Shown here: in pieces, positions 25,381-60,625 of the stretch
How the letters are laid out: each line of letters starts with the position of its first letter
Numbering within the stretch: the first letter of the stretch is position 1
Source of the DNA: an uncultured Burkholderiales bacterium
GTDB lineage: Bacteria; Vulcanimicrobiota; Xenobia; Xenobiales; JADMJV01
Length of the DNA: 64,000 nt
Assembly: GCA_964649085.1 (NCBI GenBank)
Contig: CAZYPN010000002.1
Coordinates: 158,991 to 222,990, forward strand
Direction: 5' to 3'
The notes under the pieces: model-generated
The model's input: the letters and a program-made list of their open reading frames with translations, nothing else
The model's database searches: none
Told to the model about the DNA's origin: nothing
Program-made: the position numbers and the translations under genes

Positions 25381-28300
25381 GTGTCCCATCAACAACCCAT
25401 TACGCTGCAAGAGCGGCTAGAGAATATCAAGCAACGAGCCAGCGCGGTACGGGGACAGATGGAGGGGCGTCCCACGCGGACCGATGAAACCCGCGAGGAC
25501 TGGGGAGCCGTCGGTGCCTCGCTGCAGGTGCGCCTGGAGCAGCTGAGCCAGCGGCTACAGGAACGAGACCGTCAACTGGCCGAGCTGCAGCAGCGCCTCA
25601 ACGAGTCCGACTCGGGCCAGGGTCTGCGCCGCAAACAGCTGGAGCAGCTGGCGCAACAGCTCAGCTCCAGCCTGGACGAGAAAAAGGTGCTGCAGGGCCA
25701 GCTTCACTCGGCCGAAAGTCAACGTCAACAGCTGGAACTGCAGCTGCAACTGGTTCGCGACCAGCTGCAGGAGCAGCAAAAATTGCTGGGGCAGAGTCAG
25801 GGGCGGGTGCATGACCTGCGCCAGGAATTGCTGCAGCAGCAACGCCGCGTGCGCGTGGTGGACCGGCTCCAGCTGCAGCTCGACGAAGCCGGTCTGAATC
25901 TCGACGATTTGCTTCATTCGCTGGCCCAACTGGAAGGCGACTCTCCGCTGTTGCAGGCGCTTCGTGACCAGATCGGCCAGCTGCAGGGCCAGCTCGAGGC
26001 CAGTCAGCAGCGAGAACAAAGGCTGCTGCAGCACCTGCAAGATTTGAAAGCCCGCCAACAAGACCTGGAGGCCGAGAAAAACCACCTGGGTTCCGATTTT
26101 GCCGAGCTACACCGCCAGCTGCTGGAAAATCAGCGCGAGCTTGGCCAGGCGCGCGGCGAGCTGAAACGCTGGATGGAGCTGCGCAGCGAGGTCGATCCTG
26201 AACTGCCGCGCGAGGTACAGCATCTGCGCGAGCGCAGCCAGAAGCTCGAAGCCAAGTTGCGTCAGGCCGTGCTGGCGCTGGGCGAGTCGCGCCAGGCCAC
26301 CGAGCAAGAACGAGAAGCGCGCGAACTGGCCGAGCAGCTCCTGGGGAAAAGCCAGCAGCGCCTGGTTCAGCTCGAGGTAGAACTGGACGAGCAGGTGTCG
26401 GCGCTGCAGAACTCGTGGGAAGACGTCAGCCGCCTCGAACAAGAGCTGGAACAAAGCCGCCACCACAATCGCAGTCTGCAACTGCAGGTGGGCTCCTCGG
26501 ACGAACTGCAACAACGCCTACTGCAAAGCGACCAGCAGGCACAGGAGCTACAGCAGAGGCTGGCCCACAGCGACCAGGAAACTCAACAGCTGCGCCAGCA
26601 GCTGCAAGAAAGCCGCCAGCAAGCTGCCAGCTCGGCCCAACAACTGGAAGAACTCGAGCAGCAGCGCAGCCAGCTTGAGCAGCGCCTCGAGCGGGCCCAG
26701 CTGGTGCTTCACGAGCTGCAAAACCGGGCAGCCGAGGGCCAGCAAGAGCAGGTCCTGCGCCAGCAGTGGGAAGAACGCGCCCTCAAGGCCCAGGCTCGCT
26801 TTCACCAGGCGGTCGAGCGTTTGCGTTCGCAAACCGAGCAGCTTCGCCAGCAGCAAGCCGACCTGGAAAACTGGCAATTGCGCTCCGAACAGGTCCAACA
26901 GAGCCTGGAAGACAGCCAGGAGCGCCAGGTTCAGCTGCGGCGACAGCTGGAACGCTGGCAAGAAATCAGTGGTGAGTGGCAGCGGGTTGCCGAGGTTGGC
27001 CAGGAGGGCACGGCCTTCCTTGAGCAGCGGCTGGCCGAGCATCAAGAGCAGCAACTTCAGGCTCAACAGCACAGCCAGGAGTTGCAGCAGGGGCTGATTC
27101 AGTACCAGCAAGATATCCTTCAACTCGGTCAGGCTCTGGCCGAGCTCGAAGAAAGCAACCGCAGCCTGGAAACAGAACTGGGCCTGACGCGCCAGGAGCG
27201 CGACCAGCTTCATCTGCGGGTCGAGCAGCTGGTGGAAGAGGGCCGGGCCCGTCAACACGGGTTTGAGCAACGCTGGGACAAACTCAAGACTCGCCTGGGT
27301 CAGGTCCAGTCGGACCTGGAATACAGCCAGCAACGCGGCCTGATGCTGCAGGACAAACTGCAGCAAGTCGTTGAGGTCGTCCGCGAAGAAAAGCACGCTC
27401 ATCAGCAAACCCGACAACAAAAGGACCAGCTTCAGGAAGCCCTGGCCCAACTGCAAGAGAGCGCTCGCCAGAAGGACTCGCTGCTCGAGCAGCAGAGACA
27501 AGAACTCGACACCCAATCCATGGCTCTGGAAGAGTCCTGGGAAGAGGCCCATCGCCTGGGGGAAGACCTTGAACGCGAGCGACAGTCCGCGGCTCAGCTT
27601 CGCCAGCAGTTGCAAGAGCTGCGAGCCCAGCAAGATAGTTTGCGGGAAGAGCGCGATGCTCTGCGCGAGCATTTTGAAGAACTGCTACAACAAACCGATC
27701 TCGAGCGAGAGGAGTCGGCCCGAGAACTACAGCGCCAGCTGGAACTCAATCACGAGCAAACCCGTGCGCTACAGCTTCGACTGAAAGAAGTTAGCGAAGA
27801 ACTGCTGTCGGTTCAGCAACGGTTGCAAAAAGCCCAACAAAAGCTCTTGCAGGCCGTAGACAGCCTGCGTCAAGAGCGCCTGCTGCGCCAGGAACTCTCC
27901 CAGCAGATCGATGAGCGCGACCTGATGCTGGAAGAACAGACGCAGCTGCTGGCTCAGCGTGCCGAAGAACTGGCCAGCGCCCAACACCGCTGGTCGTCCA
28001 CCGACCAGCAACGTCAGCAGCTGCAGGCCAACCACCTGACCACCGTGGCCGAACTGGAGGCCCTGCGCCAGGAGTACGAAACCCAGGTGCTGGCCCTGGA
28101 AGAGTCATGGGAGGAAGCCAGTCGCCTTCAAGAGTCGCTCGACAGCGAGCGCACTCGGGCCCAGGCTCTGGAGCAGCAATGGGCGCAGGCCCAACAGGCC
28201 CAGGTTCAACTGCTGTCACAGCTCGACCAGCTGCAGGCCGCCTATTCCGAACTGCAGAGTCGCCACAGCGGTGCGCTGGAGCAGCAACAGCAGGAGCAGC

Positions 28301-34300: not shown

Positions 34301-37300
34301 TGCAGCAAAAATTGCAGCAGGCCATTGGACGCCTGCAGCACACCAAACAGGCACTGCAGCAACGTCAGGACGAGTTGCTGGCCGGCAAAGAGGAAAAACT
34401 CCAGCTGGAATCCGAGCTGGAACAGCGCCAGCAAGCCTATAGCGAGCTGGAGCAGCAGTTGCGCCAGGCCCAGCAGCGACTGGCGGAACTGGAACCCGAA
34501 GTTGAAGGGCAGCGCGGGTTGCGGCTCGAGCTTCACGGCCTGCGAAGCCAGCTCGACAGCCTGCAGCACCAGCTGCAGCGAGCCCAGCAGCGAGAACAAG
34601 CCCTGGAAAGCCGGCTGGAGCAGGCCCAGGTTCAAGAACAGGAGCTGACCGGCAAGCTGCAACGCAGCCAGGCCAAAGAGCGCGAGCTGGAGCATCAACT
34701 GCAACGCTCGCAACAGCGAGAGCGAGAGATCGATAGTCAGCTGCAACGGGCGGGCAGCCGCGAGCGCGACCTGGAACAACAGCTGCGAGCGGGTGTCGAG
34801 CAAGAAGAGCGTCTGCGGGCCCAGCTCACCCAGGCCTGGAGCGATCTCCAGCAATCCGAACTGCTCCAGCAGCGGCTGCAGGACGAATTGAGCCAGTCTC
34901 GCTCCCAGGGCTCGCGACGTGAGAAGCAGGTGGCCGGGCTGGAAGAGCAGCTGGCCGGCCTTCAGGAATCGCTCGAGCGGGCTCGGCTGGATGGCGAGAA
35001 GCAGCTGGAGCAACATCGCGAGCGCGAGAGCCAGCTGCTGGAACAGCTAGAAAAGCTGGGAGAAGCCCTCAAGCTGCACCGCAGCAAGGCCAACGAGGCC
35101 CTGGCCGGGCTGAAACAACGCAGCGAAGAGGTCAGCGGTGAGCTGCAACTCTCGCTCCAGGAGCGCCTGGAGCTGCGCACACGGCTCGACCAGCAGGAAC
35201 ATCTCCTGGAAGAGCTGCACCACGAAGTGGACACCCGGCGCCAGCGCGAGGCCCACCTCGAGCAGGCTCTGGCCGAGGCCCGGCGGCGCGGCGGCGAACT
35301 TCAGGCGCGAGCCGGCGAGCTGGCACAATCGCTGGACGAGAGCCAGAACTTCCGGCGGCTGTTGCAAGAAGAGCTGGCCCAACAGCGTGAGCAGAGCCAG
35401 CACGACCTGGACACCCTGAATGCTCGCCTGCATGAGGCCGAGTCACGCGGCCGCGACCTGGAGGAAACCCGTTCCTTACTGCTGGAACAAGAGCAGAAGG
35501 CCCACGAGTTGAGCCTGAAACTGCGCGAGTTCCAGCAAAGCGCCATCCTTCAAGAAACCGAGCTGCAGCAGCTTCGGCAATCGCTCAAGCACGAGGAAGG
35601 CAAGCTTCAACAGCAGCAAAAGGCCCAACTCCACCAGCAGGAAATGCACCAGCAAAGGGTGCTGCAACTGCAACAGGACCTGGCCGACTTGGAAGGGCGA
35701 CTCGAAGAAAGCGAGCGTAACAACCACAAGCGTGAGCAGATCATCGGCCAGCTCAAGCAGCGCCTCGGCCAGGCGATGCAAGACCTCAGCCAGCGCCAGA
35801 CCGAGCTCCATGAGTCGCAACTGAGCCTGGAGAGGGCAGGGCGCGAACTGGAACTGAGTCGCAGCGACGGCCTGGGCAAGGAAGCGCGCATCGCCGAACT
35901 CGAGCAAGACCTCGAGCAGCGCATCCAGCGTGCCAATTCTGCCCAGCAGGAAGTCGAGAAGCTCTGGCAGCGCCTGCAGCGCGAAGAAGAACAGCGAGCC
36001 CAGCTGGCCTCCGATCTGGAAAGGCACCAGCAAGAAGCCGACCGGTTGCAGCAGCAGCTGGATGAAGCCACGCTGGAAAAACGCCAGCTGTTGCTCGACC
36101 TCGACGACGCCGCCAATCAAAAACTGCAGCTGGCGCTGGAGCTCGATCGCTCACTGGAGCAAAAGACCGCGGAAATTCAGCGCTGGCAGAAGCTGCAGGA
36201 AGAACAGCAACGCCGCCAGGACGACCTGGAAGGTCGCCTATTACTGGCCCAACAGCGAATCGAGGTCCTGACCGGAGAGCTGGAAGAACGCGAAGCTCGC
36301 CTGCAGGCTGAACGCAAGTCGGCCCAGGACCGCCAGCAAGAGTTGCGGGGCCGACTGGAACGCCAGGTGCTGGAGGCGCAGGCCCAGCAGCTGGAGCGCG
36401 AGGCCCGAGTGCAGCAACTCGAGCGCGAACAGCGCAAACAAGCCGAAGAGCTGGAACGTCAGCTGCAGGAGTTGCAAACGCAGCGCTCGGCCCTCGAAGG
36501 CGAGCTGGCCAGCCTGAAGGCCCTGGGCCAGTCGAGCCAGGCCAGCTACCAGGCCCGAATCGAGCAGATGCAGCGCGAATACGAGGGTCTGCAACGCCAG
36601 CTCAGCGAGCAGGAAGAAGAGGTTCATCAGCAACGCCTGCGGGTCTCCCAGCTGGAGGCCGATCAGGTGCTGCTCAAGCAGGCACTGCACCAGTCGGAAA
36701 CCGCCGCTCAGCAGCAACTACAGCGTCTGGAACGCCTGCAACTGGAGCGCGAGGCTCTGGAACAGCAGTTGCGTCAGCAGGAAGAGCTGGCCCACAAACT
36801 GTCGCAGCGGGCCGAGGCCGCCGGGCAAGAAGGCGAAGAGCTGCAGCGACGTCTTGAAGACGAGCAGCTCTTGCGACAGAGCCAGTGGGACGACATGAAC
36901 ACGCGCCTGGTTGAGGCCGAACGCAGGCACGCCGAGAGCGAAAGGGCGCGCGAAGAGCTGAGCCATCGCCTCAATGACGGTCAGCTGAATTACGAGATGC
37001 AGCTGTCCGAGCTGCGCCGTCAGCTCGACCAGGCTCGACTGCGTCTGGAGCGCGAGGGCGAATTTGTGCAGGGCCTGCAGGAGCGCCTGAAAGAGTCGCA
37101 GGCAGCCCAAATCCGTTTACAACAGGAGCAAGGCGAGGGGCGCCAGCAGTTGCTCGAGGCCCAGGCCGAACTGGAGCGTGCCCAGCAGGCGATGGAACGC
37201 ACCCTGAGCGAGATGCAGCTGCAGGAACGCAAGGTGGAACTGAGTCGCGAGTCTCAGGAACAGCAAAGACAGCTGTTGTTGCAGCGGGAAAGCGAGTTGC

Positions 37301-38109
37301 ACCAATTGGAAGAGGTGCGGGCCCGCCTGGACCTGCAGGTTGCCGATCTGGACCAGGAACGCGCCCGACTGCAGAAAGAGTCGGATCAACTCCGTCAGGA
37401 GCTGCAGACCTCGGGGCACCGCCTGCGCGAACAGGAAGAACGAGCACGTCTGCTTCAGGCCCAGCTCAACGTGGCCATGCAGCAGGCCGAAGAGGCCGAT
37501 CACCTGCAGCTCATGCAGATGCAGTATGAGCAAGACCTTGCCCGTCTACGCGGAGAACTGGACCAGAAACAGGCCGAAATCGACCAGCTGCAAGCCCAGG
37601 CCCGCAGCCTGTCTCGATTGCCCAACGAACTCAGCGACCGGTCGCGTCGACTGGAAGAACAGCAGGCCGAAATCCAACGGCACCGCAGTCGGGTGGACGA
37701 ATTGGAGTCGGAACTCTCGGATAGCCGTTTCTGGCGCCGAGATGCGGAAACGCGCCTGGAACGCAGCCAGCAATCGCTGGCCGAGGCCCAACGCAGCCTG
37801 GAAGCCGCCCGGCTGGAACGCGAAGAGCTGCGACGACAACTCGACGAACTGCGCGGCCAGGATGTTCGCACCCCCTACCTGCGCGCCCAGGAAGAACTGG
37901 CCGCCCTGCGTCAGGAACTGGCCCAGGCCCGAAAGCGAGAGGAACGACCGCCCGAGCCCACCCCCGAGGCCAGCCCCCCGCCACCCCGCTCGCGCCCCAC
38001 CAGCCGTAAAGCGCCTGCCAGCAAGCCTCAGGCCTGGACCCTGTTGGAGGGCTCCGAGACCAGCAGCGATCCGGCCGGTGGTGGTCTGGAGTTACCGGGG
38101 TTCTCGTGA
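25381..38109 (+). CDS. Giant (4242 aa) coiled-coil protein, Q/E/L/R-rich, modular repeats, Pro-rich basic C-terminal tail
   Basis: Uninterrupted 12,729-nt ORF. Heptad-like Leu spacing throughout, e.g. 'LQQRLNESD...LEQLAQQL'. No enzymatic motif. C-terminus 'RKREERPPEPTPEASPPPPRSRPTSRKAPASKP...'. Start GTG at 25381 (uncertain; next ATG at 25459). Confidence 0.8.
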   Translation: MSHQQPITLQERLENIKQRASAVRGQMEGRPTRTDETREDWGAVGASLQVRLEQLSQRLQERDRQLAELQQRLNESDSGQGLRRKQLEQLAQQLSSSLDEKKVLQGQLHSAESQRQQLELQLQLVRDQLQEQQKLLGQSQGRVHDLRQELLQQQRRVRVVDRLQLQLDEAGLNLDDLLHSLAQLEGDSPLLQALRDQIGQLQGQLEASQQREQRLLQHLQDLKARQQDLEAEKNHLGSDFAELHRQLLENQRELGQARGELKRWMELRSEVDPELPREVQHLRERSQKLEAKLRQAVLALGESRQATEQEREARELAEQLLGKSQQRLVQLEVELDEQVSALQNSWEDVSRLEQELEQSRHHNRSLQLQVGSSDELQQRLLQSDQQAQELQQRLAHSDQETQQLRQQLQESRQQAASSAQQLEELEQQRSQLEQRLERAQLVLHELQNRAAEGQQEQVLRQQWEERALKAQARFHQAVERLRSQTEQLRQQQADLENWQLRSEQVQQSLEDSQERQVQLRRQLERWQEISGEWQRVAEVGQEGTAFLEQRLAEHQEQQLQAQQHSQELQQGLIQYQQDILQLGQALAELEESNRSLETELGLTRQERDQLHLRVEQLVEEGRARQHGFEQRWDKLKTRLGQVQSDLEYSQQRGLMLQDKLQQVVEVVREEKHAHQQTRQQKDQLQEALAQLQESARQKDSLLEQQRQELDTQSMALEESWEEAHRLGEDLERERQSAAQLRQQLQELRAQQDSLREERDALREHFEELLQQTDLEREESARELQRQLELNHEQTRALQLRLKEVSEELLSVQQRLQKAQQKLLQAVDSLRQERLLRQELSQQIDERDLMLEEQTQLLAQRAEELASAQHRWSSTDQQRQQLQANHLTTVAELEALRQEYETQVLALEESWEEASRLQESLDSERTRAQALEQQWAQAQQAQVQLLSQLDQLQAAYSELQSRHSGALEQQQQEQQALEQLHLQTTTLQEHLKHRVDQLQQLKALRDQSQQRALALEEKLRQAVVRLAEEKQARQQLAQQNDQLIAQLAQLEQEARQSQSDLVAVRQELETQLMALEESWAESSALQAALNEARAGAEQERKAHEEARARVEILQKAHQHEVSLREELEQELEELLQLQLQLEEEKQSHRHTGQNLEQVRQRLLAVEQERDQSEQRSQALEAKVLQLAELLKQHQQLRQAEKLKAQDRLQKFSDEVRQLRQQLSTSEEESATQQLALQEAWSEMSQLQEQLEAEQQKLLQLTEERGRLQVDMAELLAHSQLESQRSQQQIGELRTEIQALLGQRHKLVDELNTRGGQLKQLASNQGALLDQVKRQHQQIDTLRAQMEAREDDVAGLQRQLEEEEQQRRHLLDELEVATQASDLLQQELGERENELQSLHERLTRLDAALNQAQQQVSLLESQREASQAQLQQLSHNHAEQMDELTRQLQRREQELETLRQIEAGAQQALAQAQEELNRSQHQQQTQQQQLQHHRQEQSRLQETVERLGQRLSQVGGAFQQAKLQLAARTQQLQQVQDSRQQLEEELVLAQAHGQRETVRADEQLERADLLEARLEQLTAQQQELLVQVEQLHQQRVPREEWQALERQARAGDQEIQGLKAQLTDLQLALQQSEEWRESQQREREALESRLERTRQELVQAVEIQQGLKERLLSVVEKFRHSEALRQRQQEELEGLQEERRNWQLLEQELQGRVVQLEQMALEGHQQLSQERQQHEQQLLERDQLLESFRNELEQARDQVDQLARELIEAQDRTFQLQQELEVNEDESQRDRTRREELNSLVASLEQQLRQLGEESASRQEQLEDQLVHQEGQLKSGQQALLQAQSQLRLLQTERDKLVRAYQQSRQALIEHQQQAVEQQQKWEQVASELRVTRTQLGKTQEELQLAHLQVETLEGDLQRLESQRDELAQRSDSRFQEYENELAQLTVELTEKRQEAYRLRNSGEGLRQENQSLTRRLEETLREKTELTQRREFETQQFKSVLEQLLGQRQLLESKLKEVAAQRKEFLLELKRERQLSNQQQQDLTQLQTRFDESQALLQQQLQQLEQVRGYFDEARQQGQQLQQQLQQELGRSSQLEEQLHHHQEGWQRDRGQLEQERQQRQRLEVEVEAGQRQRGQLESQLDQQRAQIEGLEVELTRLQAESHQDQQRLKQEAELLQRQLEQLSSQRQGLMDKLKTVAGERADLKQALQAQQEELAEIQLRREVLELRLVQVEGERDLLQSESEQYRQRVDELEERLERSASDFQQAQEQLQLLSELRAQGARQEQQLQALEWGREADGQKIGELQQRLEQVDQQRQALEVELAQARGRLEEAAVRREELQSEIEDAARQLQGLRFEASELRQSQQKSKESLLLSQQKVEQLEAELGELRTQHQQLQEQSARNEEELRLLLRQSQQESEEHRQLSEELLQQTREQLEQKEAHLLKLVDTLGRAKDRMRDQKARVAELESELAQVREQAQEHFQRLIRVTREREDLSELKQRELGELQRQLQAASAELEQRQRELLALEAQNQLQQRELVELSRQEVAAEEQRTLLQSQLFELEQQLRSAAEDKQQLERERDSWQDRQEQTQNELEQLSIEHREVLDSRQQLQAELERLSVQLSQLEEHSSSDLQQREQQIQKLGEAYAKIRQRFVENQQQLAEAQAEQAALRQRNEQIEAELGQAHERLEQLQSEARQLEAQVHERQLELQDQQQQLEQQRNELTRLGQESEKQRFELQRLAPLEAQNQAQQRELMALSRQEAELEEQRQRLQSNLEQLNLRQQKLEGELAESERRHSKLQAEHLKLQQKQATAEAQLESQQQEVERLQTEHRLARREVEELQEQLQQREVSTQKLGEAYAKVRQKLVETQQQLAEAQAEAEQQQRRADRLEDDLGGLKEELRLATFERSAAEERWRGASQQVQQAGEERERLSQLNEELKSNLRHTQQLQQQGEADLVELKLQLQQEQERAGQLQQKLQQAIGRLQHTKQALQQRQDELLAGKEEKLQLESELEQRQQAYSELEQQLRQAQQRLAELEPEVEGQRGLRLELHGLRSQLDSLQHQLQRAQQREQALESRLEQAQVQEQELTGKLQRSQAKERELEHQLQRSQQREREIDSQLQRAGSRERDLEQQLRAGVEQEERLRAQLTQAWSDLQQSELLQQRLQDELSQSRSQGSRREKQVAGLEEQLAGLQESLERARLDGEKQLEQHRERESQLLEQLEKLGEALKLHRSKANEALAGLKQRSEEVSGELQLSLQERLELRTRLDQQEHLLEELHHEVDTRRQREAHLEQALAEARRRGGELQARAGELAQSLDESQNFRRLLQEELAQQREQSQHDLDTLNARLHEAESRGRDLEETRSLLLEQEQKAHELSLKLREFQQSAILQETELQQLRQSLKHEEGKLQQQQKAQLHQQEMHQQRVLQLQQDLADLEGRLEESERNNHKREQIIGQLKQRLGQAMQDLSQRQTELHESQLSLERAGRELELSRSDGLGKEARIAELEQDLEQRIQRANSAQQEVEKLWQRLQREEEQRAQLASDLERHQQEADRLQQQLDEATLEKRQLLLDLDDAANQKLQLALELDRSLEQKTAEIQRWQKLQEEQQRRQDDLEGRLLLAQQRIEVLTGELEEREARLQAERKSAQDRQQELRGRLERQVLEAQAQQLEREARVQQLEREQRKQAEELERQLQELQTQRSALEGELASLKALGQSSQASYQARIEQMQREYEGLQRQLSEQEEEVHQQRLRVSQLEADQVLLKQALHQSETAAQQQLQRLERLQLEREALEQQLRQQEELAHKLSQRAEAAGQEGEELQRRLEDEQLLRQSQWDDMNTRLVEAERRHAESERAREELSHRLNDGQLNYEMQLSELRRQLDQARLRLEREGEFVQGLQERLKESQAAQIRLQQEQGEGRQQLLEAQAELERAQQAMERTLSEMQLQERKVELSRESQEQQRQLLLQRESELHQLEEVRARLDLQVADLDQERARLQKESDQLRQELQTSGHRLREQEERARLLQAQLNVAMQQAEEADHLQLMQMQYEQDLARLRGELDQKQAEIDQLQAQARSLSRLPNELSDRSRRLEEQQAEIQRHRSRVDELESELSDSRFWRRDAETRLERSQQSLAEAQRSLEAARLEREELRRQLDELRGQDVRTPYLRAQEELAALRQELAQARKREERPPEPTPEASPPPPRSRPTSRKAPASKPQAWTLLEGSETSSDPAGGGLELPGFS
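32950..34030 (+). repeat. Two diverged ~640-655-nt direct repeats inside the giant coiled-coil gene
   Basis: 'EAQNQ(L/A)QQREL(V/M)(E/A)LSRQE' at ~32957 and ~33610. 'QKLGEAYAK(I/V)RQ(R/K)(F/L)VE(N/T)QQQLAEAQAE' at ~33298 and ~33938. Confidence 0.5.
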
Positions 38110-39107
38110 GGCAGCTGCTGCTTCAGTCACCGATCTTTCTCGAGCACGACACCGGTCGTCACGTGGAGAACGCCGCAAGGCTGCAAGCCATTCAACAGCA
38201 GCTCGTAGGTCTGGAAGGCTGGCGGTCTGCCAGCCCCCGAGCGGCCAGCGACGACGAACTGTTGCTGGCTCATCAACCCTCCCACCTGCAACACCTGCTT
38301 CAGCTGCAAGCCGAGGGTGCGCGCTGCGTCGATGCCGACACCGTCCTTTCGGCACGCAGCCTGGAGGCAGCCCGTCTGGCCGCAGGTGGGGGGCTGCTGC
38401 TGGTGGACGAGGTGCTGAGTGGCGAGGCCGACCTGGGCTTCGCCCTGGTGCGCCCCCCGGGCCACCACGCCACGCCCGACCGCGCCATGGGCTTCTGCCT
38501 GTTTTCCAATGTGGCGCTGGCCGCCCTCTACGCCCGCCAACGTTGGAAGCTGGAGCGCATCTTCATCCTCGACTGGGATGTACACCACGGCAATGGCACC
38601 CAGGACTGCCTGCTGGAGCATCCCCAGGTCACCTTTTGTTCGCTGCACCAATGGCCGCTTTACCCGGGTTCGGGCTGGCACGACGAGCGCGGCCAGGGCA
38701 ATCTGTACAATCTGCCGATGCCGGCCGGCTGCGGCGACGCCGAGTACTTATTTGCGCTGGAAAAGCTGGTTGGACCCTTGCTGGACAAGGTCCAGCCTCA
38801 ACTGATCCTGCTTTCTGCCGGCTACGACGCCCACCAGCGCGACCCGCTGGGTTCGATGGAAGTCACCACCAACGGCTTTGCTGCCATGGCCTCCTGGCTG
38901 CGCCAGCGAGCGACGCAATTGCGGGCACCTTTATTGGGCTTTCTCGAGGGAGGCTACGACCTGCGCGGACTGTCCGAATCGGTAGCGGCTACGCTGCAGG
39001 CCTGGTCTCGGCCGGGCCCGCTCAGCCCGGTGGAGGCTCGGGCATTGAGCAGTGGGGTCCTGCAGAGGATCTACCAGGCTCAGGCAAGCTGGCAACTCGA
39101 GGGCTGA
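38106..39107 (+). CDS. Histone deacetylase-family enzyme (HDAC/AcuC/acetylpolyamine amidohydrolase class)
   Basis: 'LVRPPGHHA', 'GFCLFSNVALAA', 'ILDWDVHHGNGTQD', 'SAGYDAHQRDPLGSMEVT' are the HDAC-fold catalytic and Zn-binding blocks. GTG start overlaps the giant gene TGA (GTGA at 38106-38109). Confidence 0.85.
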   Translation: MRQLLLQSPIFLEHDTGRHVENAARLQAIQQQLVGLEGWRSASPRAASDDELLLAHQPSHLQHLLQLQAEGARCVDADTVLSARSLEAARLAAGGGLLLVDEVLSGEADLGFALVRPPGHHATPDRAMGFCLFSNVALAALYARQRWKLERIFILDWDVHHGNGTQDCLLEHPQVTFCSLHQWPLYPGSGWHDERGQGNLYNLPMPAGCGDAEYLFALEKLVGPLLDKVQPQLILLSAGYDAHQRDPLGSMEVTTNGFAAMASWLRQRATQLRAPLLGFLEGGYDLRGLSESVAATLQAWSRPGPLSPVEARALSSGVLQRIYQAQASWQLEG

Positions 39108-52565: not shown

Positions 52566-54281
52566 TCAGGCCGGGTCGTAACTTTCGCCGATGGCATCCT
52601 CGGGGTTGGCCGCTTCGTCTTCCTTGATATAGGCCTGCAGCGTGTCGTCGACGCGCTTCACCTGCCAGATCTTTTGGCAGCCCTGGAAGTAGAACTGCTG
52701 CCCCTCGTTGATCATCGCCTGGTTCTCTTCCTGAGCCCCCTGGCGAATCTGACGAATGCCGTACTCGCACTCTTCCACGCCCTGATTGAGCAACTCGAGC
52801 GAGTCGGCACAGAGGTCGATCACCTCCTGGAGCTTGGCCCGCTCTTCCTCTTCCACTTCGTCGGGAATGGGGGGTGGGTGCAGCTTGCTCAATTCGGCTT
52901 TGGCGCTGTCGATGTTGGCCTGGCTTACATCCAGCTTGGCCATCAGCTCATCGATAGGCAACTTACCGCGCAAAAACTTGTCGCAGCTCTCAAAGAGGTC
53001 CTTCATGACGTCGGTGACGACCATGTCGCGAGAACTATCGCTGGCATCGCCCTCGAGCACCTGGAAGCTGCTGGTCGAACTCCAGCTGCTGTAGACGTCG
53101 GAACCGGCCATCTGGGGCAGGCTGGCGCCGCACTTGGCGCAAAACTTGGCCGGCGCATTGGGTGTGGAACAGGCCGGACAAATCACTTTTCCATAGCTCT
53201 CACTGTGGGCCTCAACGTTCACGCGGGCGCCGTGCACCGTTTGCGTACCGCTCTCGAGGTCTTCCAGAGCCTGAACGGCGTCGTCGGCCGAAGCCGTACC
53301 GTCGCAGTAAGCGATCAGAACCGTCAGGGCCTCCTCCATGAGCTCCATGGCCTCGAGCATCTTGGGGGTCTCTTCCTGAATGACCGTAGAGTCGTTGCTG
53401 GCCTTGACCACCAGCTGCAGGTCGCCAATGCTTTTCTGCAGCCGCTCCACCTGGGGCACGCACAGATTGCGCAAAACACCCGGCTGGATCTTCTTCTCCA
53501 GCACGCTGTCGGCGGTTTTCAAGATAATGTTGATGGCCGCCGACGGGGTTGGGCTGGAAGTGATCGATTCGTTGAATTCGTCGACTGCGGCATCCAGGTT
53601 GGAGTGACCCTGTTCCAGGTCGCGGGTCAGTTCCTCGAACTTGGCGGCCGACGACCCGGGGGTCAGAGCCTTGAGCGCCTGCAGAGCAGCCACGATGCTC
53701 TCCAGGGCAGCCCGCCGGGCCGGCACGCCCGGACCGTTCTTCTCCTTACTGTTGTCGATCTCGCGAATGGCCTCCGCATAGAACACCTCATACTGGTTGC
53801 AGGTGCCCTGCCAGCCCTCGATGGGCGCCTTGCCCTCGCGAACCAGCTTGCCGAGATTGGCAAACAGGTTGATCAGCGGATACTTGCTCGGCCCCTCGGA
53901 AAGGAACCGTTGCTCATAGGCCGCCATCGCCGACTGCAACCCGGCCGAACAGAAGGCCAGCACGTGGGCTGACTCGTCGAGCAACTCGGGGCGAGGATCC
54001 GCCTTAAAACTGAGGATCTGCTCGAGTGCCGCGTCGTAGCCTTCGAAATACTTGGCAATCAGCTCAATTTCGTTCTTGAACTTGGCCTGAAACTCGGCCC
54101 CCTGCTTTTCAGTACCGGCGAAAAAATTGTCCGAAGCCTGAGTCAGCGCGTCCTGTCGGGCCTGGGCCATGTGCTCCAGCTCAGGGTAGGCCCTGGTGTC
54201 GCCGGCGGCGACCTCCAGACATTTGTCGATCAGCGCCTGGGTCTCGGCGGATTGGCTGACGGGCTTGGTTGCTTGGCTCAT
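52566..54281 (-). CDS. Zinc-ribbon-containing coiled-coil protein, unknown function
   Basis: Trimmed to Met 'MSQATKPVSQ'. Double CxxC ribbon 'CPACSTPNAPAKFCAKCGASL'. Long helical acidic regions. ATGA overlap with upstream GNAT gene. Confidence 0.5.
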   Translation of the reverse strand: MSQATKPVSQSAETQALIDKCLEVAAGDTRAYPELEHMAQARQDALTQASDNFFAGTEKQGAEFQAKFKNEIELIAKYFEGYDAALEQILSFKADPRPELLDESAHVLAFCSAGLQSAMAAYEQRFLSEGPSKYPLINLFANLGKLVREGKAPIEGWQGTCNQYEVFYAEAIREIDNSKEKNGPGVPARRAALESIVAALQALKALTPGSSAAKFEELTRDLEQGHSNLDAAVDEFNESITSSPTPSAAINIILKTADSVLEKKIQPGVLRNLCVPQVERLQKSIGDLQLVVKASNDSTVIQEETPKMLEAMELMEEALTVLIAYCDGTASADDAVQALEDLESGTQTVHGARVNVEAHSESYGKVICPACSTPNAPAKFCAKCGASLPQMAGSDVYSSWSSTSSFQVLEGDASDSSRDMVVTDVMKDLFESCDKFLRGKLPIDELMAKLDVSQANIDSAKAELSKLHPPPIPDEVEEEERAKLQEVIDLCADSLELLNQGVEECEYGIRQIRQGAQEENQAMINEGQQFYFQGCQKIWQVKRVDDTLQAYIKEDEAANPEDAIGESYDPA

Positions 54282-54892
54282 GGTGTCTCCCCGGATGTAG
54301 TTTGTTGCCCTTCGCGCCGCTTGCGGGTGCGCAGCAGACGGCTGACCGAATGGCTTCGTTCGGCCAGCGGACGCCCCGGCATTCGCACCGGACCTTCGGC
54401 TCCGCAGGCCATCGTGAGCTGATATCGCTCGATATCGAATCCTACCTGGATAGCGCTGAGCAGGGCTCGCTCGTTGCTGGCAGAGACTTTCGCGGTCATA
54501 TAGCGATACCCTCGCTGATGGGTAATGCGGGCAGCCTCGCGCACCAACGCGTGCCCCACATAGCGGCCCCAATACGCTTCCTCAACGCCCATGTTGAAAA
54601 GAAAACTCTGACTCTCGCCGGTAGACTCCTCGATATGGTGGAACTCGAGGATGAGAAAACCCGCCGGCAGATGTTCTTTGTGGGCGTCGACGGCCACCAG
54701 CACGGCGAAATCGCGCTTGCGCAAAATCCACTGGTCCAGCTCGTGCAGCGAGGCCTGGGCCCGCTCCAGCACCTGAGCCGTGGGAATGTCGCGGCTCTCG
54801 GGAATGCCCTGCCCCACCAGCTCCAGCGAGAGGCGGCGGATGAAATCCATGTCCGACAATCGCGCGCGGCGAACCTCAATGCCTGGTGTCAC
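54278..54892 (-). CDS. GNAT-family N-acetyltransferase
   Basis: Acetyl-CoA-binding-like 'RYVGHALVREAARITHQRGYRYM' plus overall GNAT topology. ATGA overlaps on both sides. Confidence 0.65.
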   Translation of the reverse strand: MTPGIEVRRARLSDMDFIRRLSLELVGQGIPESRDIPTAQVLERAQASLHELDQWILRKRDFAVLVAVDAHKEHLPAGFLILEFHHIEESTGESQSFLFNMGVEEAYWGRYVGHALVREAARITHQRGYRYMTAKVSASNERALLSAIQVGFDIERYQLTMACGAEGPVRMPGRPLAERSHSVSRLLRTRKRREGQQTTSGETP

Positions 54893-56280
54893 GACGGGCC
54901 CTGCTTCAGACGCAAGGGCGAACCTTTCAAGGCCACTTTCACCTTCAGCCTTTCGATCCGCAGTTGCAGATCTCCCGGTAGTGGCAACTGCTCCAAAGCT
55001 CGCAACTCTCCCTGAGCCCGTAGGGGCTGGTCGGCCTCCAAGAAAAGCTCGGCCAGCTCGAGCTGAGCCTCAAGATTGGCCATATCCTGGGGCAACAGCT
55101 GCAGAGCACGTCGATAGCTCTTCATGGCGGCCTGAGGCTGTCCTGACTGTCGCTGTGCCCGCGCCAACTCGCGCAGCAACTCGACCCGCGAACCCGGGTC
55201 GGACAGCTGTAGCTTGAGGGCCTCCTGCAGGCAGGCCTCGGCCTCGGTCGGGCGACGTCCCAGGCTCCAGGCCCGTGCCAGCAAACCCAACAAATGCCTT
55301 CGCGATAAGGGATCGGCGCTCTCACCCCAGTCGGCGAGCAACTTCTGCCAACGCTCCGCGGCAGCCCGATAACGCTTTTGCTCAAAATCGATGAAGCCCC
55401 TCAGATAGTCGGCCTTGCCGGGCGTGACCTGCCCCAGCCAGTGCTCGGCCTTGATATAGTTCTTGCGCAGCCAGTAGAAGGCGGCCACATCGAAGGCGTC
55501 GACCTGATATTCAGGCACCAGAGTCGCAGCCTGCTCGAACCCCGGGCCCTGATGGTCCTGACCGCTGCCCCAGGCCCGGCACACCAGAGCTGCAGCCCGC
55601 AGACCGGCCACCTCCTGGCTGAGGTCCTTCAGGCTGTGGAAGGCCGCCATCCAGGCTTCGACCTCAGAACGCTGCCCCTTGCCCAGCATTTCGCAGAGGT
55701 CGCCCAAGTAGCGACGGCACAGCGGCGTGTAGCCTCCGATCACCGAGTAGGCCACGGTGGTGGCCTGAAACTGCAGGCCCCGCAGTCGCTCGAAGAGCTG
55801 CAAAGGATCTTCCCAAACCCCGTCGCTGGCGTCCAGGAAATAGTCCACATCGATGTCCAGCAGCCAGCTGCGCTCATCGGCTCGCGGCAGAACCTCGCTG
55901 GTGCACACCACCAATCGGGCTCCGCGGAGCTGGCCTACCACCCGATGGTCTTCGAGCTTGAGCGAATTGAACTCGGGCAGTTGCAGGGGAACCCAGGTGG
56001 GAAGCTCGTGAAAACACCACTGCAGCAGGTCAGAGTGGCCCTGGCAGAGATGGGGAGGCACCACCCACCAGACTTCGCTGACGATGCCTTCCTGAACGGC
56101 CTTCAGCAGATAGTTGGCGCAGTTGACCTCGGGATGCTCCACCTGCAGGTCGAGGGGCGCCTGAAACTCGGCCATGTCCAGATGGGCGTCGATGTGCAGG
56201 CAGGCAGCCCCTCGAATACCCATTTCCTTCCACAGGAAATAGGCATCCCGATGGTCCTCCATCATACGAAGCGGTCCCAT
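54889..56280 (-). CDS. UPF0489 (C5orf22-like) N-terminal domain fused to TPR repeats
   Basis: N-terminus 'MMEDHRDAYFLWKEMG...CLHIDAHLDM...NYLLKAV...VWWVVPPH' parallels the UPF0489 pattern 'VVEDHQEV...LHFDSHPDL...NWIMPAV...VIWFHP'. C-terminal half has TPR-like 34-aa repeats. Confidence 0.5.
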   Translation of the reverse strand: MGPLRMMEDHRDAYFLWKEMGIRGAACLHIDAHLDMAEFQAPLDLQVEHPEVNCANYLLKAVQEGIVSEVWWVVPPHLCQGHSDLLQWCFHELPTWVPLQLPEFNSLKLEDHRVVGQLRGARLVVCTSEVLPRADERSWLLDIDVDYFLDASDGVWEDPLQLFERLRGLQFQATTVAYSVIGGYTPLCRRYLGDLCEMLGKGQRSEVEAWMAAFHSLKDLSQEVAGLRAAALVCRAWGSGQDHQGPGFEQAATLVPEYQVDAFDVAAFYWLRKNYIKAEHWLGQVTPGKADYLRGFIDFEQKRYRAAAERWQKLLADWGESADPLSRRHLLGLLARAWSLGRRPTEAEACLQEALKLQLSDPGSRVELLRELARAQRQSGQPQAAMKSYRRALQLLPQDMANLEAQLELAELFLEADQPLRAQGELRALEQLPLPGDLQLRIERLKVKVALKGSPLRLKQGPS

Positions 56281-56397
56281 GGGCCACAGTTCAGGACTCT
56301 GCCTGGCAGGTCCTCTGTGGCGGTTCGGGCTCCCCTTACCAAGAAAAAGAGACCCGCGGAACCCGCGGGCCTCTTTTCATTTCAGGTTGCTCTGGAT

Positions 56398-57174
56398 TTA
56401 GAAGAAGCCAACGCCACCGGGGGCGCAGCCGCAGAACGGAGGACGACCGAAGGGCGGGAACTGAGGCTGCATCATAAAGTTGCCGCCGCCGCAGCCCATA
56501 TAGCCGCCGCCACCCTGGCCCATCATCATCACCTGCATCATCATCATCGTGGACATCATCTGCGACATCATGCCCATCATCATCATCTGCTGCATCATCG
56601 GATCCTGGCCATAGCCCTGTCCGGGATAGGGTCCACACTGGGGCCCACCGTAGCCACCACCATAGGGAGGAGCATAGCCACCACCGTAGCCGCAGCCGCC
56701 GCCGTGATAGGGGGGCATCGGGGGGGGCTGAATGCCACCGCAACCGTTGCCGAACGAACCATTGCAGGGGCCGAAGCTGGCGCAGTTCTGAGCCTGACCG
56801 GCCTCGCCCAGCGGGCCCACACCGAAGAGCTTCTGCACACCACCGTCGAGCCAACCGATTGCTCCGGCAGCGGCCTGACCGACGAACGGGCCGGCCATCG
56901 AGCCCAGGAAGGGCATTCCGAACATACCGCCGATGGCGAAGCCGGCGATGCCGCCGACAATCGGGTCGCCCAGCACGTTCTTGGCAGCCGACAGACCGCC
57001 GTGGAGAACGTGACCTACGCCTTTAAAAAGTCCTTTACCAACCGAGCCGAGGGCGCCAAGGGGGTCACCACTGACCAGTTTGACTGCGCCGTCGACCACA
57101 CCGCCGACGACCGATTTGGCTCCACGCCAGACGCCTCGTGCGACGTCAACTACTCCGCGTACTACACCACCCAT
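56398..57174 (-). CDS. Low-complexity Gly/Val-, Gly/Tyr/Cys/Pro- and poly-Met-rich protein
   Basis: Trimmed to Met 'MGGVVRGVVDVARGV'. Segments 'GYGGGYAPPYGGGYGGPQCGPYPGQGYGQ', 'MMQQMMMMGMMSQMMSTMMMMQVMMMG', terminal 'CGCAPGGVGFF'. Confidence 0.4.
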   Translation of the reverse strand: MGGVVRGVVDVARGVWRGAKSVVGGVVDGAVKLVSGDPLGALGSVGKGLFKGVGHVLHGGLSAAKNVLGDPIVGGIAGFAIGGMFGMPFLGSMAGPFVGQAAAGAIGWLDGGVQKLFGVGPLGEAGQAQNCASFGPCNGSFGNGCGGIQPPPMPPYHGGGCGYGGGYAPPYGGGYGGPQCGPYPGQGYGQDPMMQQMMMMGMMSQMMSTMMMMQVMMMGQGGGGYMGCGGGNFMMQPQFPPFGRPPFCGCAPGGVGFF

Positions 57175-57260
57175 GTTCTTGTCCCTCCAGATTTTCGTTG
57201 TCGAAACTTCTCTTGCCCAGTGTATCCCCCGGTACCGGGGAGCCGACAAGGGCTTAAATG

Positions 57261-57300
57261 TTGAACATTTGCAACAAGTTTGTTTCAAAAGTGTTAACCA
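57261..57300. promoter_or_regulatory. AT-rich palindrome-dense element in divergent intergenic region (candidate promoter/operator for map and/or the Gly/Met-rich gene)
   Basis: 'TTGAACAtttgcaacaagtTTGTTTCAAaagTGTTAACCa'. Contains inverted TTGAACA/TGTTTCAA, palindromic TTGCAA and GTTAAC. Shares TGTTAACC with the rpsB upstream region. Confidence 0.3.
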
Positions 57301-57334
57301 GGCTTTCGTCGGCGCCATCCCGAACCCCTGGCCC

Positions 57335-58084
57335 GTGAATCTCGTCACCGACAAGCAAGACCTGCAGATCCTCCGACAGTGTGGTTTGCTCGTGGCCGAT
57401 ATCCTGGACACCGTTTCGGCGGCGGTAGCCCCCGGGATCTCTACGGGCGAGCTCGACCAGATGGCAGCCTCCATGATCGAAGCCGCCGGGGCCATTTCGG
57501 CGCCGCGCAAGGTGTATAACTTTCCTGGCAGCATTTGCATCAGCCTTAATGACGAAGCGGTTCACGGCATTCCCGGAGAGCGCAAGGTACAGGCTGGCGA
57601 CCTCGTCAAGGTAGACGTCACGGTGGAATACCAGGGATGGATCACCGATGCCGCCCGAACCGTGGTGGTGGGTCCCAGCGATCCTCAGGCCGAACAGCTG
57701 GCGCGCTGCTCCGAAACCGCTCTATTGAAGGCCCTGAGCCTGGCGCGCGAGGGCAGGGCTCTTTGGGAAATCGGCCTGGCCGTTGAAAGCGTGGTCAAGC
57801 GGGCGGGTTTTCGCGTGTTGCGCCAACTCTGTGGGCACGGCGTGGGGCGCAGCATACACGAGAGCCCCGTGGTGCCCAATTTCTACGATCGGCGCTACAA
57901 GGACAGGCTGCGCGCCGGGCAGGTGATCACCATCGAGCCCATTCTAGCCCTGAGCACCGAGGAAATCGTTACCGACCCCGACGGCTGGACCTTGCGCACC
58001 CGCGACGGTTCGGTTTCAGCCCACTTCGAGCACAGCCTGCTGATCACCCAACGAGAGCCCATTATCCTGACCCTCAAGCCATGA
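57335..58084 (+). CDS. map: Methionine aminopeptidase, type I
   Basis: 'VNLVTDKQDLQILRQCGLLVADIL' aligns to the MetAP N-terminus. Metal ligands in 'DLVKVDVTV', 'HGVGRSIHE', 'ITIEP', 'HFEHSLLIT'. GTG start chosen by alignment. Track ORF begins earlier (57080). Confidence 0.8.
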   Translation: MNLVTDKQDLQILRQCGLLVADILDTVSAAVAPGISTGELDQMAASMIEAAGAISAPRKVYNFPGSICISLNDEAVHGIPGERKVQAGDLVKVDVTVEYQGWITDAARTVVVGPSDPQAEQLARCSETALLKALSLAREGRALWEIGLAVESVVKRAGFRVLRQLCGHGVGRSIHESPVVPNFYDRRYKDRLRAGQVITIEPILALSTEEIVTDPDGWTLRTRDGSVSAHFEHSLLITQREPIILTLKP

Positions 58085-59217
58085 TCGCCCTGGTAGCCTG
58101 GGCCTGGCTGTACGTGGGATTGATCGTGGCTCTGGTCAGCTGGCGGACGGGCCTGCTGCCCGCGGGCCGACGCGCCCATTTGCCCCGCCTTTCAGTGGTC
58201 ATTCCGGCCTGCAACGAAGCCGACACGCTGGCTCCCGCGCTGGCTTCATTGCTGGCCAGCGACTATCCCGACCTGGAAATCGTGCTGGTCAACGACCGCT
58301 CCAGCGACGCAACCGGAGACCTGATGGAGGCCATGGCGGCCCACGACCCACGGGTGCAGGTCGTTCACCTGCACAGCCTGCCGCCGGGTTGGCTGGGCAA
58401 GAACCACGCCATGCACCAGGGCGCGCGGCGGGCCAGCGGGCGCTGGATATTGTTCAGCGACGCCGACGTCGTTTTCCAGCCCGACACGCTGGCCCGGGCC
58501 GTCAGCCTGGCCGAGGACCGAGGGGTCGAACACCTGGTGCTGTCGCCCCGTGTCATTGCAGGAACGTTTTGGGAGAAGGTGTTCCTGAGCTATTTTGGCA
58601 CGGCCTTCTGTTTCCGTTTTCGCCCCGACCGGGTGGGCCACAGGGGGCGCTATTTTGCCGGCATAGGCGCCTTCAACCTGGTGCAGCGAGAGCCGTACCT
58701 GCAACTGGGAGGCCACTCGACCCTGGCCCTGCAGGTGCTCGACGACATGGAACTGGGGCGCCTCTTCAAGCTTCACGGCTACCGTCAGCATTTTGCCGGT
58801 GGCGGAGCCAGCGTCCAGGTGCGCTGGGCGGTGGGGCTGCGCGGGCTGGTGATGGGCCTGGAAAAAAACGCCTTCGCCGGGGTCAACTATTCGCTGCTGC
58901 TGGGCCTTTCGGGCTCGTTGGCATCGCTGCTGGCCAGCCTGGTTCCGCTGCTGCTGCTCGCTCCCCAGGCCGATCCGTGGCTGCGCCTGGTGTGCTGGGC
59001 CGGCATCGCTATCAGCGCCATCGCCGTCAGTCCTGGTACGGGAACCCCCCGCTGGGCAGGAGCCTGCTTTCCGCTGGCGGGAGCTTTGTTCAGCTTCATC
59101 TTCCTGCGTTCCATCTTCCTGGCACAGTACCGAGGCGGAATTTACTGGCGAGGCCAGTTCTATCCCCTGTCCCGCTTGAAGGAGGCCCAAAGGGCTCTGC
59201 GAACTCCTGCTGGTTAA
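58081..59217 (+). CDS. Family 2 glycosyltransferase with N- and C-terminal TM segments
   Basis: 'LSVVIPACNEADTL', 'EIVLVNDRSSD', 'FSDADVV' are GT2 DxD-type blocks. ATGA overlap with map. Confidence 0.75.
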   Translation: MIALVAWAWLYVGLIVALVSWRTGLLPAGRRAHLPRLSVVIPACNEADTLAPALASLLASDYPDLEIVLVNDRSSDATGDLMEAMAAHDPRVQVVHLHSLPPGWLGKNHAMHQGARRASGRWILFSDADVVFQPDTLARAVSLAEDRGVEHLVLSPRVIAGTFWEKVFLSYFGTAFCFRFRPDRVGHRGRYFAGIGAFNLVQREPYLQLGGHSTLALQVLDDMELGRLFKLHGYRQHFAGGGASVQVRWAVGLRGLVMGLEKNAFAGVNYSLLLGLSGSLASLLASLVPLLLLAPQADPWLRLVCWAGIAISAIAVSPGTGTPRWAGACFPLAGALFSFIFLRSIFLAQYRGGIYWRGQFYPLSRLKEAQRALRTPAG

Positions 59218-59236: not shown

Positions 59237-60625
59237 TTGTCGCTTTCCGAGTATCTGAACAGCCACCGTCAACAGTTTGAGTCCGACCTTTTCCGCCTGC
59301 TGGAAATCCCCAGCGTCAGCACCGATCCGGCGCGCAAGTCCGAGGTTGTGCGCTGTGCCCACGAGGTTGCCGCTCAGCTGCGTCAGGCCGGTCTGGAGGA
59401 CGTGGCCGTGATGGAAACCGGCGGGCACCCTTTGGTGTTTGGCCAGTGGCTGCATGCGCCCAATGCGCCCACCGTGCTGGTCTACGGCCACTACGACGTG
59501 CAGCCCGAAGATCCGGTAGAGCTGTGGACCAGCCCCCCGTTCCAGCCCACGGTGCGTGAGGGCAAGGTGTACGCCCGCGGAGCCACCGATGACAAAGGCC
59601 AGTTCATCGCTCACGTCAAGGCCGTCGAGGCCCTGATGAAAACCGAAGGCAGGCTGCCGGTGAACGTCAAGTTTGTCATCGAAGGCGAAGAAGAAATCGG
59701 CAGCCGCAACCTGGCGCCCTTCCTGGAGAGCCACCGTGAGCTGTTGGCCGCCGACGTGCTCGTCGTCAGCGACAGCGCCATGTTTGCCCCCGACGAACCC
59801 AGCATCGTATACGGGCTGCGGGGTCTGGCCTACGTGCAGGTGGAGCTGAAGGGTGCCGATAGCGACCTGCATTCGGGCGTATTTGGCGGGGCTGTGCCCA
59901 ATCCGGGCTTTGAACTGTGCCGCATCATCTCCCAGCTGAAGGACGAGCAGGGCCGCATTACCGTGCCCGGCTTTTACGACAAGGTGCAGGACCTCACTCC
60001 TCAGGAACGTCAGGACTATGCGCGCCTTCCCTTCGACGCCGAGGCCTTTCGCAAGGAACTGAACGTCCCGGGCCTTTCCGGCGAAGAAGGCTGGACCCCG
60101 CTCGAGCAACGCAGCGGTCGGCCCACTTTGGAAATCAACGGAATGTTGTGTGGCTGGACGGGTCCGGGAGCCAAAACGGTGCTGCCCAATAAGGCTATGG
60201 CCAAAATTTCCTGCCGATTGGTGCCCGACCAGGACCCCGAAGACATCGCCCGCCTGCTGAGCGAGCACATTCGCAGACTCTGCCCCCCCACGGTGGAATG
60301 TCATATCGAATCGCTGCACGGCGGCAAGCCCTGGCTGACCCCGCGCCAACATCCGGCCCTCGACTGCGCCAATCGGGCGGTACAGCAAGTCTTTGGCAAG
60401 CCGGCTCTGTTCGTTCGTGAAGGGGGCTCGATTCCCATCGTGGTGGATTTTCAGACCATCTTGGGCCTGCCTGGAATTCTGGTGGGCTTTGGCCTGAACA
60501 GCGAAAACCTGCACGCCCCCGACGAGCATTTCGACCTGGGCAACTACCACAAGGGCATCCAGCTTTCGGTGGAACTGATGCGCCAAATGGCCAGCTACCA
60601 GAGCCCCGTATTGCTCAACCAGTAG
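59237..60625 (+). CDS. M20-family metallopeptidase (dipeptidase/ArgE-DapE-CPG2-like)
   Basis: 'VLVYGHYDVQP', 'ARGATDDKGQ', 'EGEEEIGS' are M20 metal-binding blocks. C-terminal dimerisation domain. TTG start with GGAGG 7 nt upstream. Confidence 0.8.
   Translation: MSLSEYLNSHRQQFESDLFRLLEIPSVSTDPARKSEVVRCAHEVAAQLRQAGLEDVAVMETGGHPLVFGQWLHAPNAPTVLVYGHYDVQPEDPVELWTSPPFQPTVREGKVYARGATDDKGQFIAHVKAVEALMKTEGRLPVNVKFVIEGEEEIGSRNLAPFLESHRELLAADVLVVSDSAMFAPDEPSIVYGLRGLAYVQVELKGADSDLHSGVFGGAVPNPGFELCRIISQLKDEQGRITVPGFYDKVQDLTPQERQDYARLPFDAEAFRKELNVPGLSGEEGWTPLEQRSGRPTLEINGMLCGWTGPGAKTVLPNKAMAKISCRLVPDQDPEDIARLLSEHIRRLCPPTVECHIESLHGGKPWLTPRQHPALDCANRAVQQVFGKPALFVREGGSIPIVVDFQTILGLPGILVGFGLNSENLHAPDEHFDLGNYHKGIQLSVELMRQMASYQSPVLLNQ

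Follow-up and report, generated by a model that had tools for sequence, protein, structure and literature searches.

A TPR-fused member of the peptide arginase family in a conserved four-gene module of Xenobia, with a predicted role in N-acyl-ornithine formation on proteins

The subject of this report is a gene module on the minus strand of a 64,000-nucleotide stretch of contig CAZYPN010000002.1 (hereafter the window, meaning the whole of the DNA analysed; G+C content around 62%). The module has the order U-A-B-C: A encodes a member of the peptide arginase family fused to a tetratricopeptide repeat (TPR) domain, B a GNAT N-acyltransferase, C a putative zinc-ribbon protein and U, lying directly upstream of A, a Gly/Met-rich protein of low complexity. 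The reading we prefer, though tentatively and at slightly less than an even chance, is that A would make ornithine on a protein substrate, probably U, that B would then N-acylate it and that C would act as a partner. All functional statements made here about the module are predictions.

Gene structure of the module

A first-pass annotation of this DNA had described a tightly coupled operon of three genes. Three co-directional, overlapping open reading frames (ORFs) are indeed present on the minus strand, namely A (54889..56280; 463 residues, ATG start), B (54278..54892; 204 residues) and C (52566..54281; 571 residues counted from the ATG at 54281). The unit so defined is incomplete, however, in that a fourth conserved gene, U (56398..57177, minus strand; 258 residues), had been missed. 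Of the ORF listed at this place (56398-57540), only the part from an internal ATG at 57177 onwards is conserved; the sequence GGAGGG precedes that codon. The junctions, too, required partial revision: there are two of them and not three, and while the stop of B and the start of C share an ATGA overlap at 54281-54278, the four-nucleotide overlap of the A stop and the B start reads GTGA, so that B starts with GTG at 54892. The start of the B orthologues falls at the corresponding place. Translation of A and B is coupled.

Gene A and the peptide arginase family

The catalytic domain of A (55681..56280, minus strand; residues 1 to approximately 200) matches the Pfam family PF12640 (UPF0489) with a score of 31.1 bits against a cut-off of 27, the alignment covering positions 3-167 of the 167 in the profile and residues 6-148 of the protein. 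The UPF0489 assignment, which had been put forward subject to a profile check, is thus placed above the Pfam gathering threshold, and the stretches that had been quoted in its favour are all found in A (EDH, residues 8-10; HIDAHLDM, 29-36; VWWVVPPH, 70-77). Apart from TPR proteins, the only sequence match of known structure was OspR (8brp; E-value 2e-4 with only the N-terminal domain of A as query). In that alignment H10, D31, H33, D35, D144 and D146 of A correspond to His12, Asp39, His41, Asp43, Asp165 and Asp167 of OspR, the six residues that coordinate manganese in that enzyme (PMC10028609). None of the six predicted metal ligands of A varies among 33 aligned homologues having 21-57% identity. 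The peptide arginase family's signature motifs, EEH(N/H)EAF, DXHXD and LDIDLDYFSC (PMC10028609), find their counterparts in MEDHRDAYF (containing H10), D31-A-H33-L-D35 and LLD142-I-D144-V-D146-YF (LDIDVDYFL), the first of these deviating from the family consensus through replacement of E by D at its second and fifth residues.

The AlphaFold model of A is confident (predicted local distance difference test, pLDDT, 93.4; predicted template modelling score, pTM, 0.90). Its best structural matches were OspR, at the top, along with agmatinase, arginase and proclavaminate amidinohydrolase; no fold of the histone deacetylase (HDAC) type was present among the top 60. On the basis of the Pfam score, the OspR alignment, the invariant ligands, the motifs and the fold, we consider A to be a TPR-fused member of the peptide arginase family with an apparently intact catalytic site. 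The earlier suggestion of a metal-dependent hydrolase is thereby borne out, the His/Asp site conforming to the six-ligand binuclear arginase pattern both in the alignment to OspR and across the 33 homologues. As for the family, the precomputed Pfam annotation of the protein collection gives PF12640 the name FlmR_OhkR_N, and NCBIfam holds a model named 'peptide arginase, FlmR/OhkR family'. OspR, KspR, PhaR, FlmR, OhkR and BipC are members of PF12640 that use a binuclear manganese site to convert Arg in ribosomal peptides to ornithine and urea, and every characterised bacterial enzyme of the family is a peptide arginase, with not one deacetylase among them (PMC10028609, PMC8784127, PMC12703449, PMC12707348). 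A is likewise predicted to turn peptidyl arginine into ornithine and urea.

The C-terminal part of A (54907..55671, minus strand; residues approximately 204-458) is all-helical in the predicted structure and exceeds the Pfam cut-off for TPR_2, TPR_12 and TPR_19 (31.7 bits against 27 in the case of TPR_2), upholding the TPR fusion that had been proposed. Its structural matches are to Pins/LGN and to the peptide-binding TPRs of Rap, NprR and PlcR. With around 260 residues, this domain takes the place of the C-terminal (dimerisation) half of OspR. No published description of a TPR-fused peptide arginase was found in the literature; within its known enzyme family A represents a new branch, set apart by the TPR fusion. 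Conventional ureohydrolases such as arginase, agmatinase and proclavaminate amidinohydrolase belong to a different Pfam family, PF00491, and differ from A in the contexts of their motifs. The human protein C5orf22 (UPF0489), on the other hand, shares its Pfam family with A, although it is eukaryotic and lacks an operon context; an arginase activity on proteins or peptides has been hypothesised for it, not demonstrated (PMC10028609).

Conservation and rearrangement of the module

Homologues of A derive almost exclusively from assemblies named Vulcanimicrobiota, Eremiobacterota or Xenobia. The A-B-C order is retained, with overlapping junctions, in orthologous loci whose A proteins are 53%, 42% and 37% identical to that of the window, and the C proteins of these loci are 38-44% identical to the window C over nearly its full length. 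The gene order and the four-nucleotide overlaps hold even where A is only 37% identical, so that the coupling is a conserved feature and no accident.

A scan of one genome per species yielded 80 loci with A-like proteins. It employed an alignment of 16 A sequences, the alignment of 33 being too diverse, and loci were classified by phmmer and hidden Markov model (HMM) searches. Xenobia-like assemblies, 24 in number, contributed 48 of the loci (up to five each), with B adjacent in 36, C within the flanks in 28, a U-type protein in 24 and a BpsA_C-like gene (PF01861, the C-terminal domain of branched-polyamine synthase) in 16. Neither an adjacent B, nor C, nor a BpsA_C-like gene was present at any of the 32 loci from other phyla (Omnitrophota, Desulfobacterota-like, Nitrospirota and others), for which U-type proteins were not tabulated. 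As far as the scan shows, the U-A-B-C combination is restricted to one candidate phylum. Some of the assemblies bear doubtful taxonomic labels, such as 'uncultured Burkholderiales' or 'Selenomonadaceae', and were grouped with Xenobia solely because their loci resemble Xenobia modules.

The Xenobia-like modules come in at least three rearranged, paralogous layouts. Type 1, that of the window, runs U > A > B > C. In type 2 a different U protein (MGRVVxGVARG...) is followed by C, with A > B nearby. In type 3 a third kind of U precedes B > A, while C is convergent and a BpsA_C-like gene lies beyond it. The type-3 U proteins are small and rich in Gly, Gln, Asn and Met; their N-terminus is a hydrophobic glycine zipper, and the motif GGGGPR(A/Q)PRM is invariant among them. 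They are encoded just upstream of the GNAT gene; the example in locus L087 is at 5973-6377, and homologues occur in L030, L032, L033, L034, L036, L037, L039, L040, L041, L045 and L047. A, B and C are therefore found together elsewhere, in orthologous loci and also in rearranged paralogous layouts; a failure to co-occur would have counted against the operon proposal. Persistent association of the four kinds of protein, despite duplication and rearrangement, argues strongly that they form a functional unit.

The BpsA_C-like genes accompany modules of types 2 and 3 (for example L087 9940-11082 and L005 1634-3792, with about 20 loci besides), and none is present in the window or at type-1 loci. 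Their products could extend or otherwise modify ornithine, or could indicate polyamine metabolism; a literature search on PF01861/DUF43 in peptide modification found nothing relevant.

Outside Xenobia, a distant UPF0489+TPR homologue of 475 residues, P0068, is flanked on one side by a PMT-family glycosyltransferase and on the other by a PqqD protein, four radical-SAM genes, ScmC and an ABC transporter. This context indicates that TPR-fused arginase homologues also occur in clusters resembling those for peptides that are made ribosomally and modified post-translationally (RiPPs).

Gene U and the U-A spacer

The 258-residue U protein is of low complexity, with 28% Gly and 10% Met. Its N-terminus reads MGGVVRGVVDVARGVWRG, and is followed by a hydrophobic, glycine-zipper-like segment at approximately residues 72-95, then by a Met/Gln tract and a Cys-rich C-terminus. 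U has no Pfam match and belongs to no recognisable leader family. Arginine is scarce in U and concentrated in a conserved RG motif at the N-terminus: of the four arginines in the window protein, three are at residues 1-17, and every one of the 13 distinct type-1 sequences has R6. In 13 type-1 loci an orthologue of U immediately precedes A. U proteins of types 1 and 2 (U1 and U2) all begin MG-, those of type 3 (U3) MA-. Detection of U-type proteins was partly motif-based: an HMM trained on U proteins of type 1 did not pick up those of types 2 and 3, which were found by motif and by phmmer with a type-3 query, and a word-index search with the N-terminal region of U returned just two near-identical proteins.

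The 120-nucleotide spacer between U and A (56281-56400, minus strand) has a minimum free energy of -60.6 kcal/mol (z = -5.8). It contains a terminator-like hairpin (56340..56378, minus strand) with a 16-bp stem, a 3-nucleotide loop and a U tract, as well as a second hairpin just upstream of the start codon of A. An Rfam search gave no match. Among six orthologous loci examined, hairpins of unrelated sequence lie directly before the A start in three (L006, L002 and L004), with none there in L001, L007 and L011. The terminator-like hairpin is in keeping with strong expression of a substrate gene and weaker expression of the enzyme genes after it.

Genes B and C

B matches PF00583 (GNAT) with 30.3 bits against a cut-off of 20.7, in agreement with its initial naming as a GNAT acetyltransferase, and is by sequence an ordinary member of that family. 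The stretch R110-Y-V-G113-H-A115 can be read as the GNAT acyl-CoA motif R/Q-x-x-G-x-G/A, and around it G109, L116 and A120 are invariant in the B alignment. Weak profile matches were obtained to nourseothricin acetyltransferase (1.8e-5), to PaiA and to thialysine/diamine acetyltransferases, while the nearest relatives of solved structure include the polyamine/diamine acetyltransferases PaiA and SSAT2. These matches are compatible with an ornithine acceptor but prove nothing. The best NCBIfam match, far under its cut-off, was to the N-terminal acetyltransferase RimI. The C-terminal tail of B is also conserved (C163, G167, P172 and R174). These residues lie in an extension, AC163xxEG167PxPMP172GR174P..., which together with a subsequent basic tail spans residues approximately 155-204 (54278-54430, minus strand) and is common to type-1 and type-2 paralogues. 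The TPR domain of A might dock onto this extension.

C is an acidic protein, predicted to be all-helical, with stacked helical bundles and a putative four-Cys zinc ribbon at its centre (53130..53180, minus strand; C368-P-A-C371 ... C381-A-K-C384). It had been described as a zinc-ribbon coiled-coil protein: the double CxxC is real, C368, C371, C381 and C384 being invariant in 30 paralogues, but the prediction is of helical bundles and not of a coiled coil. The Pfam families DZR, Zn_ribbon_3 and DUF7577 all score below cut-off on C, the ribbon region of the model has a pLDDT of approximately 60-70, and structure comparison returned generic four-helix bundles only. The family is small, with 308 cluster representatives among 1.84 billion, nearly all of 540-590 residues.

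Proposed mechanism and its precedents

In our proposal the guanidino group of polypeptide arginines would be hydrolysed at a binuclear Mn(II) site in A, yielding ornithine and urea, with the TPR domain of A holding the substrate. B would be a dedicated GNAT that N-acylates, or in the simplest case acetylates, the delta-amine exposed by A, in the manner of the pairs KspR/KspN and PhaR/PhaN. The substrate would most likely be the Gly/Met-rich U through its N-terminal RG motif, and a candidate peptide substrate for A is MGGVVRGVVDVARGVWRGAK. U is favoured in this role because every module type has its own U-type protein, each with a conserved arginine motif and otherwise poor in Arg. C may be a partner, a scaffold or a chaperone for an aggregation-prone protein of low complexity, and possibly a second substrate.

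The logic of arginase plus GNAT has a precedent in the selidamide pathways (KspR/KspN and PhaR/PhaN), where a PF12640 arginase is likewise encoded together with a GNAT. There ornithine is first produced by the arginase, whereupon the GNAT acylates the delta-amine, and omission of the arginase abolishes acylation (PMC8784127); the acylated ornithine is at the N-terminal end of the core, and in KspA the core residue Arg1 is preceded by Gly at position -1 (PMC13647313). The present module differs in having neither an NHLP or Nif11 precursor nor a lanthionine synthetase (LanM), in its putative substrates, which are low-complexity proteins of 130-280 residues, and in its additional 570-residue putative zinc-ribbon protein, C. 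It further differs in the presence of several paralogous modules per genome and of aminopropyltransferase-like genes in sister modules. The RiPP peptide arginases OspR, FlmR, OhkR and BipC belong to the same Pfam family as A, which keeps the six Mn ligands in variant motifs and has OspR as its best structural match; unlike their clusters, however, the window locus has no RiPP precursor or further maturase nearby. The U, A, B and C proteins had no match to PADLOC models of anti-phage defence at E-values up to 0.01.

Several observations weigh against the proposal. The NCBIfam FlmR/OhkR model (NF052474) gives A only 23.2 bits against a cut-off of 350 and aligns solely in its N-terminal half (positions 5-163 of 287), so that A falls outside this narrower subfamily, and the guanidine-stabilising Glu11 of OspR is Asp9 in A. 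Pfam scans of 20 flanking ORFs revealed no RiPP precursor (NHLP, Nif11 or DD(I/V)LF), LanM, radical SAM protein or C39 transporter within approximately 10 kb, short unannotated ORFs not having been searched exhaustively. U-type proteins, at 130-280 residues, are far larger than known arginase substrates and were not detected in every module (24 of the 48 Xenobia-like loci). Not one Arg or Lys of C is invariant across the 30 paralogues, which weakens the case for C as a substrate with a conserved site, and the BpsA_C-like genes of sister modules hint at polyamine chemistry.

It is possible, though we would regard it as doubtful, that the modules form a protein-level system distinct from RiPP biosynthesis, in which a TPR-tethered arginase and its GNAT would place N-acyl-ornithine in the conserved N-terminal motif of Gly/Met-rich proteins, the helical-bundle protein C taking part as a partner, with up to five modules per Xenobia genome, and in which the aminopropyltransferase-like enzyme of sister modules could add polyamine-like side chains to the ornithine so formed.

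Alternative readings

In an unlikely but not far-fetched scenario the two would modify the same protein or proteins independently, A making ornithine and B acetylating some other amine, either the N-terminus of U after removal of its Met or a lysine. The invariant MG or MA N-termini of U-type proteins would suit such a role, as would the far sub-threshold RimI match as the best that NCBIfam offers for B, and the gene for a methionine aminopeptidase that adjoins U in the window. That adjacency was not seen in the orthologous loci checked, however, and the profile matches of B lean towards acetyltransferases of side-chain and polyamine amines; moreover, the arginase-GNAT pairs characterised by experiment all act sequentially on the same residue (PMC8784127). 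It is quite unlikely that the module serves small-molecule metabolism, with A hydrolysing a free guanidino compound, B acetylating the resulting diamine or polyamine, and U and C being unrelated neighbours. The fold of A is one common to agmatinase and arginase, PaiA and SSAT2 are among the nearest solved relatives of B, BpsA_C-like genes of polyamine aminopropyltransferase type accompany 16 sister modules and a spermine-synthase-like gene is found 5 kb downstream in L004. Against this, characterised PF12640 members act on peptides, and OspR lacks the residues that bind the backbone of free arginine (PMC10028609). A, in addition, carries a large TPR domain of peptide-binding type, proteins of U and C type keep accompanying A and B across three rearranged layouts, and the BpsA_C-like gene is absent from the window and from type-1 loci.

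Bacteriocin and RiPP loci commonly have a structural gene, a leaky terminator and the enzyme genes in succession, a layout which the order of U, hairpin and enzyme genes resembles. U could accordingly be a large precursor of RiPP or bacteriocin type that A and B mature before its cleavage and export, C serving for immunity or recognition, but we judge this improbable. It would accommodate P0068, whose cluster includes genes for PqqD, radical-SAM proteins and an ABC transporter, and the Arg motif of U3 after its GGGG run recalls Arg1 of KspA after Gly -1 (PMC13647313). Nevertheless, the Pfam scans of flanking ORFs revealed no protease, C39 transporter or other maturase near the module, and U-type proteins, for which no leader family could be recognised, reach 130-280 residues with long, low-complexity tails. 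The first-pass annotation had suggested a putative module of acetylation and its reversal, under which A would be a deacetylase undoing the acetylation that B puts on C. In its favour, arginases and HDACs fall in one fold superfamily, and a GNAT beside a hydrolase is a familiar writer/eraser pattern. It is the least supported of the readings and we find it highly improbable: A showed neither an HDAC-type (PF00850) assignment nor an HDAC among its top 60 structural matches, its characterised bacterial relatives are peptide arginases without exception, and the documented relation of PF12640 enzymes to GNATs is sequential, Arg to ornithine to acyl-ornithine (PMC8784127), and not antagonistic.

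Other genes of the window

The HDAC gene at 38106-39104 (plus strand), which had been put forward as another acyl-modification module, is genuine (PF00850, 286 bits), but it is 14 kb distant, behind unrelated genes and outside the conserved module. No evidence links it to the latter and it was rejected as a partner. Its start overlaps the stop of a giant ORF (25381-38109, plus strand; 4242 residues) with an AT skew of +0.28 to +0.40 along its whole length. Diverging from U on the plus strand are genes for a methionine aminopeptidase (PF00557; 57080-58084), a family-2 glycosyltransferase (58081-59217) and an M20 peptidase (59237-60625). An M20 peptidase is also near the closest orthologous module (L001), with none seen at more distant loci; since they are shared at most with that closest locus, the three genes were not retained as parts of the module. 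At the other end, a LuxR/GerE-type regulator (51954-52562, plus strand) converges on the end of C, and a close homologue of it is beside C in L007 and 4 kb from C in L008. An ORF at 50219-50992 (minus strand; 257 residues) has no Pfam match and contains three internal repeats with SVQDQC(S/H/R)IG. A 1916-residue protein of the TamB/AsmA/DUF748 type, encoded at 14817-20567 (plus strand), suggests a function in outer-membrane biogenesis in this organism.

Significance

Peptide arginases were reportedly discovered only in 2020, and to our knowledge they have so far been met with solely as maturases of small RiPP natural products. Were the proposed mechanism true, the conversion of Arg to ornithine would extend from natural-product chemistry to the post-translational modification of proteins, and, on the protein-level reading, the module would represent the first known bacterial enzymatic installation of ornithine in full-length proteins. 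By our own calculation the N-acetyl-ornithine residue (156.0899 Da) and arginine (156.1011 Da) are separated by 0.011 Da, a gap so narrow that routine proteomics could overlook the modification. The module would, furthermore, supply a defined set of enzymes and substrate and, on the protein-level reading, a tractable model for the function of human C5orf22.

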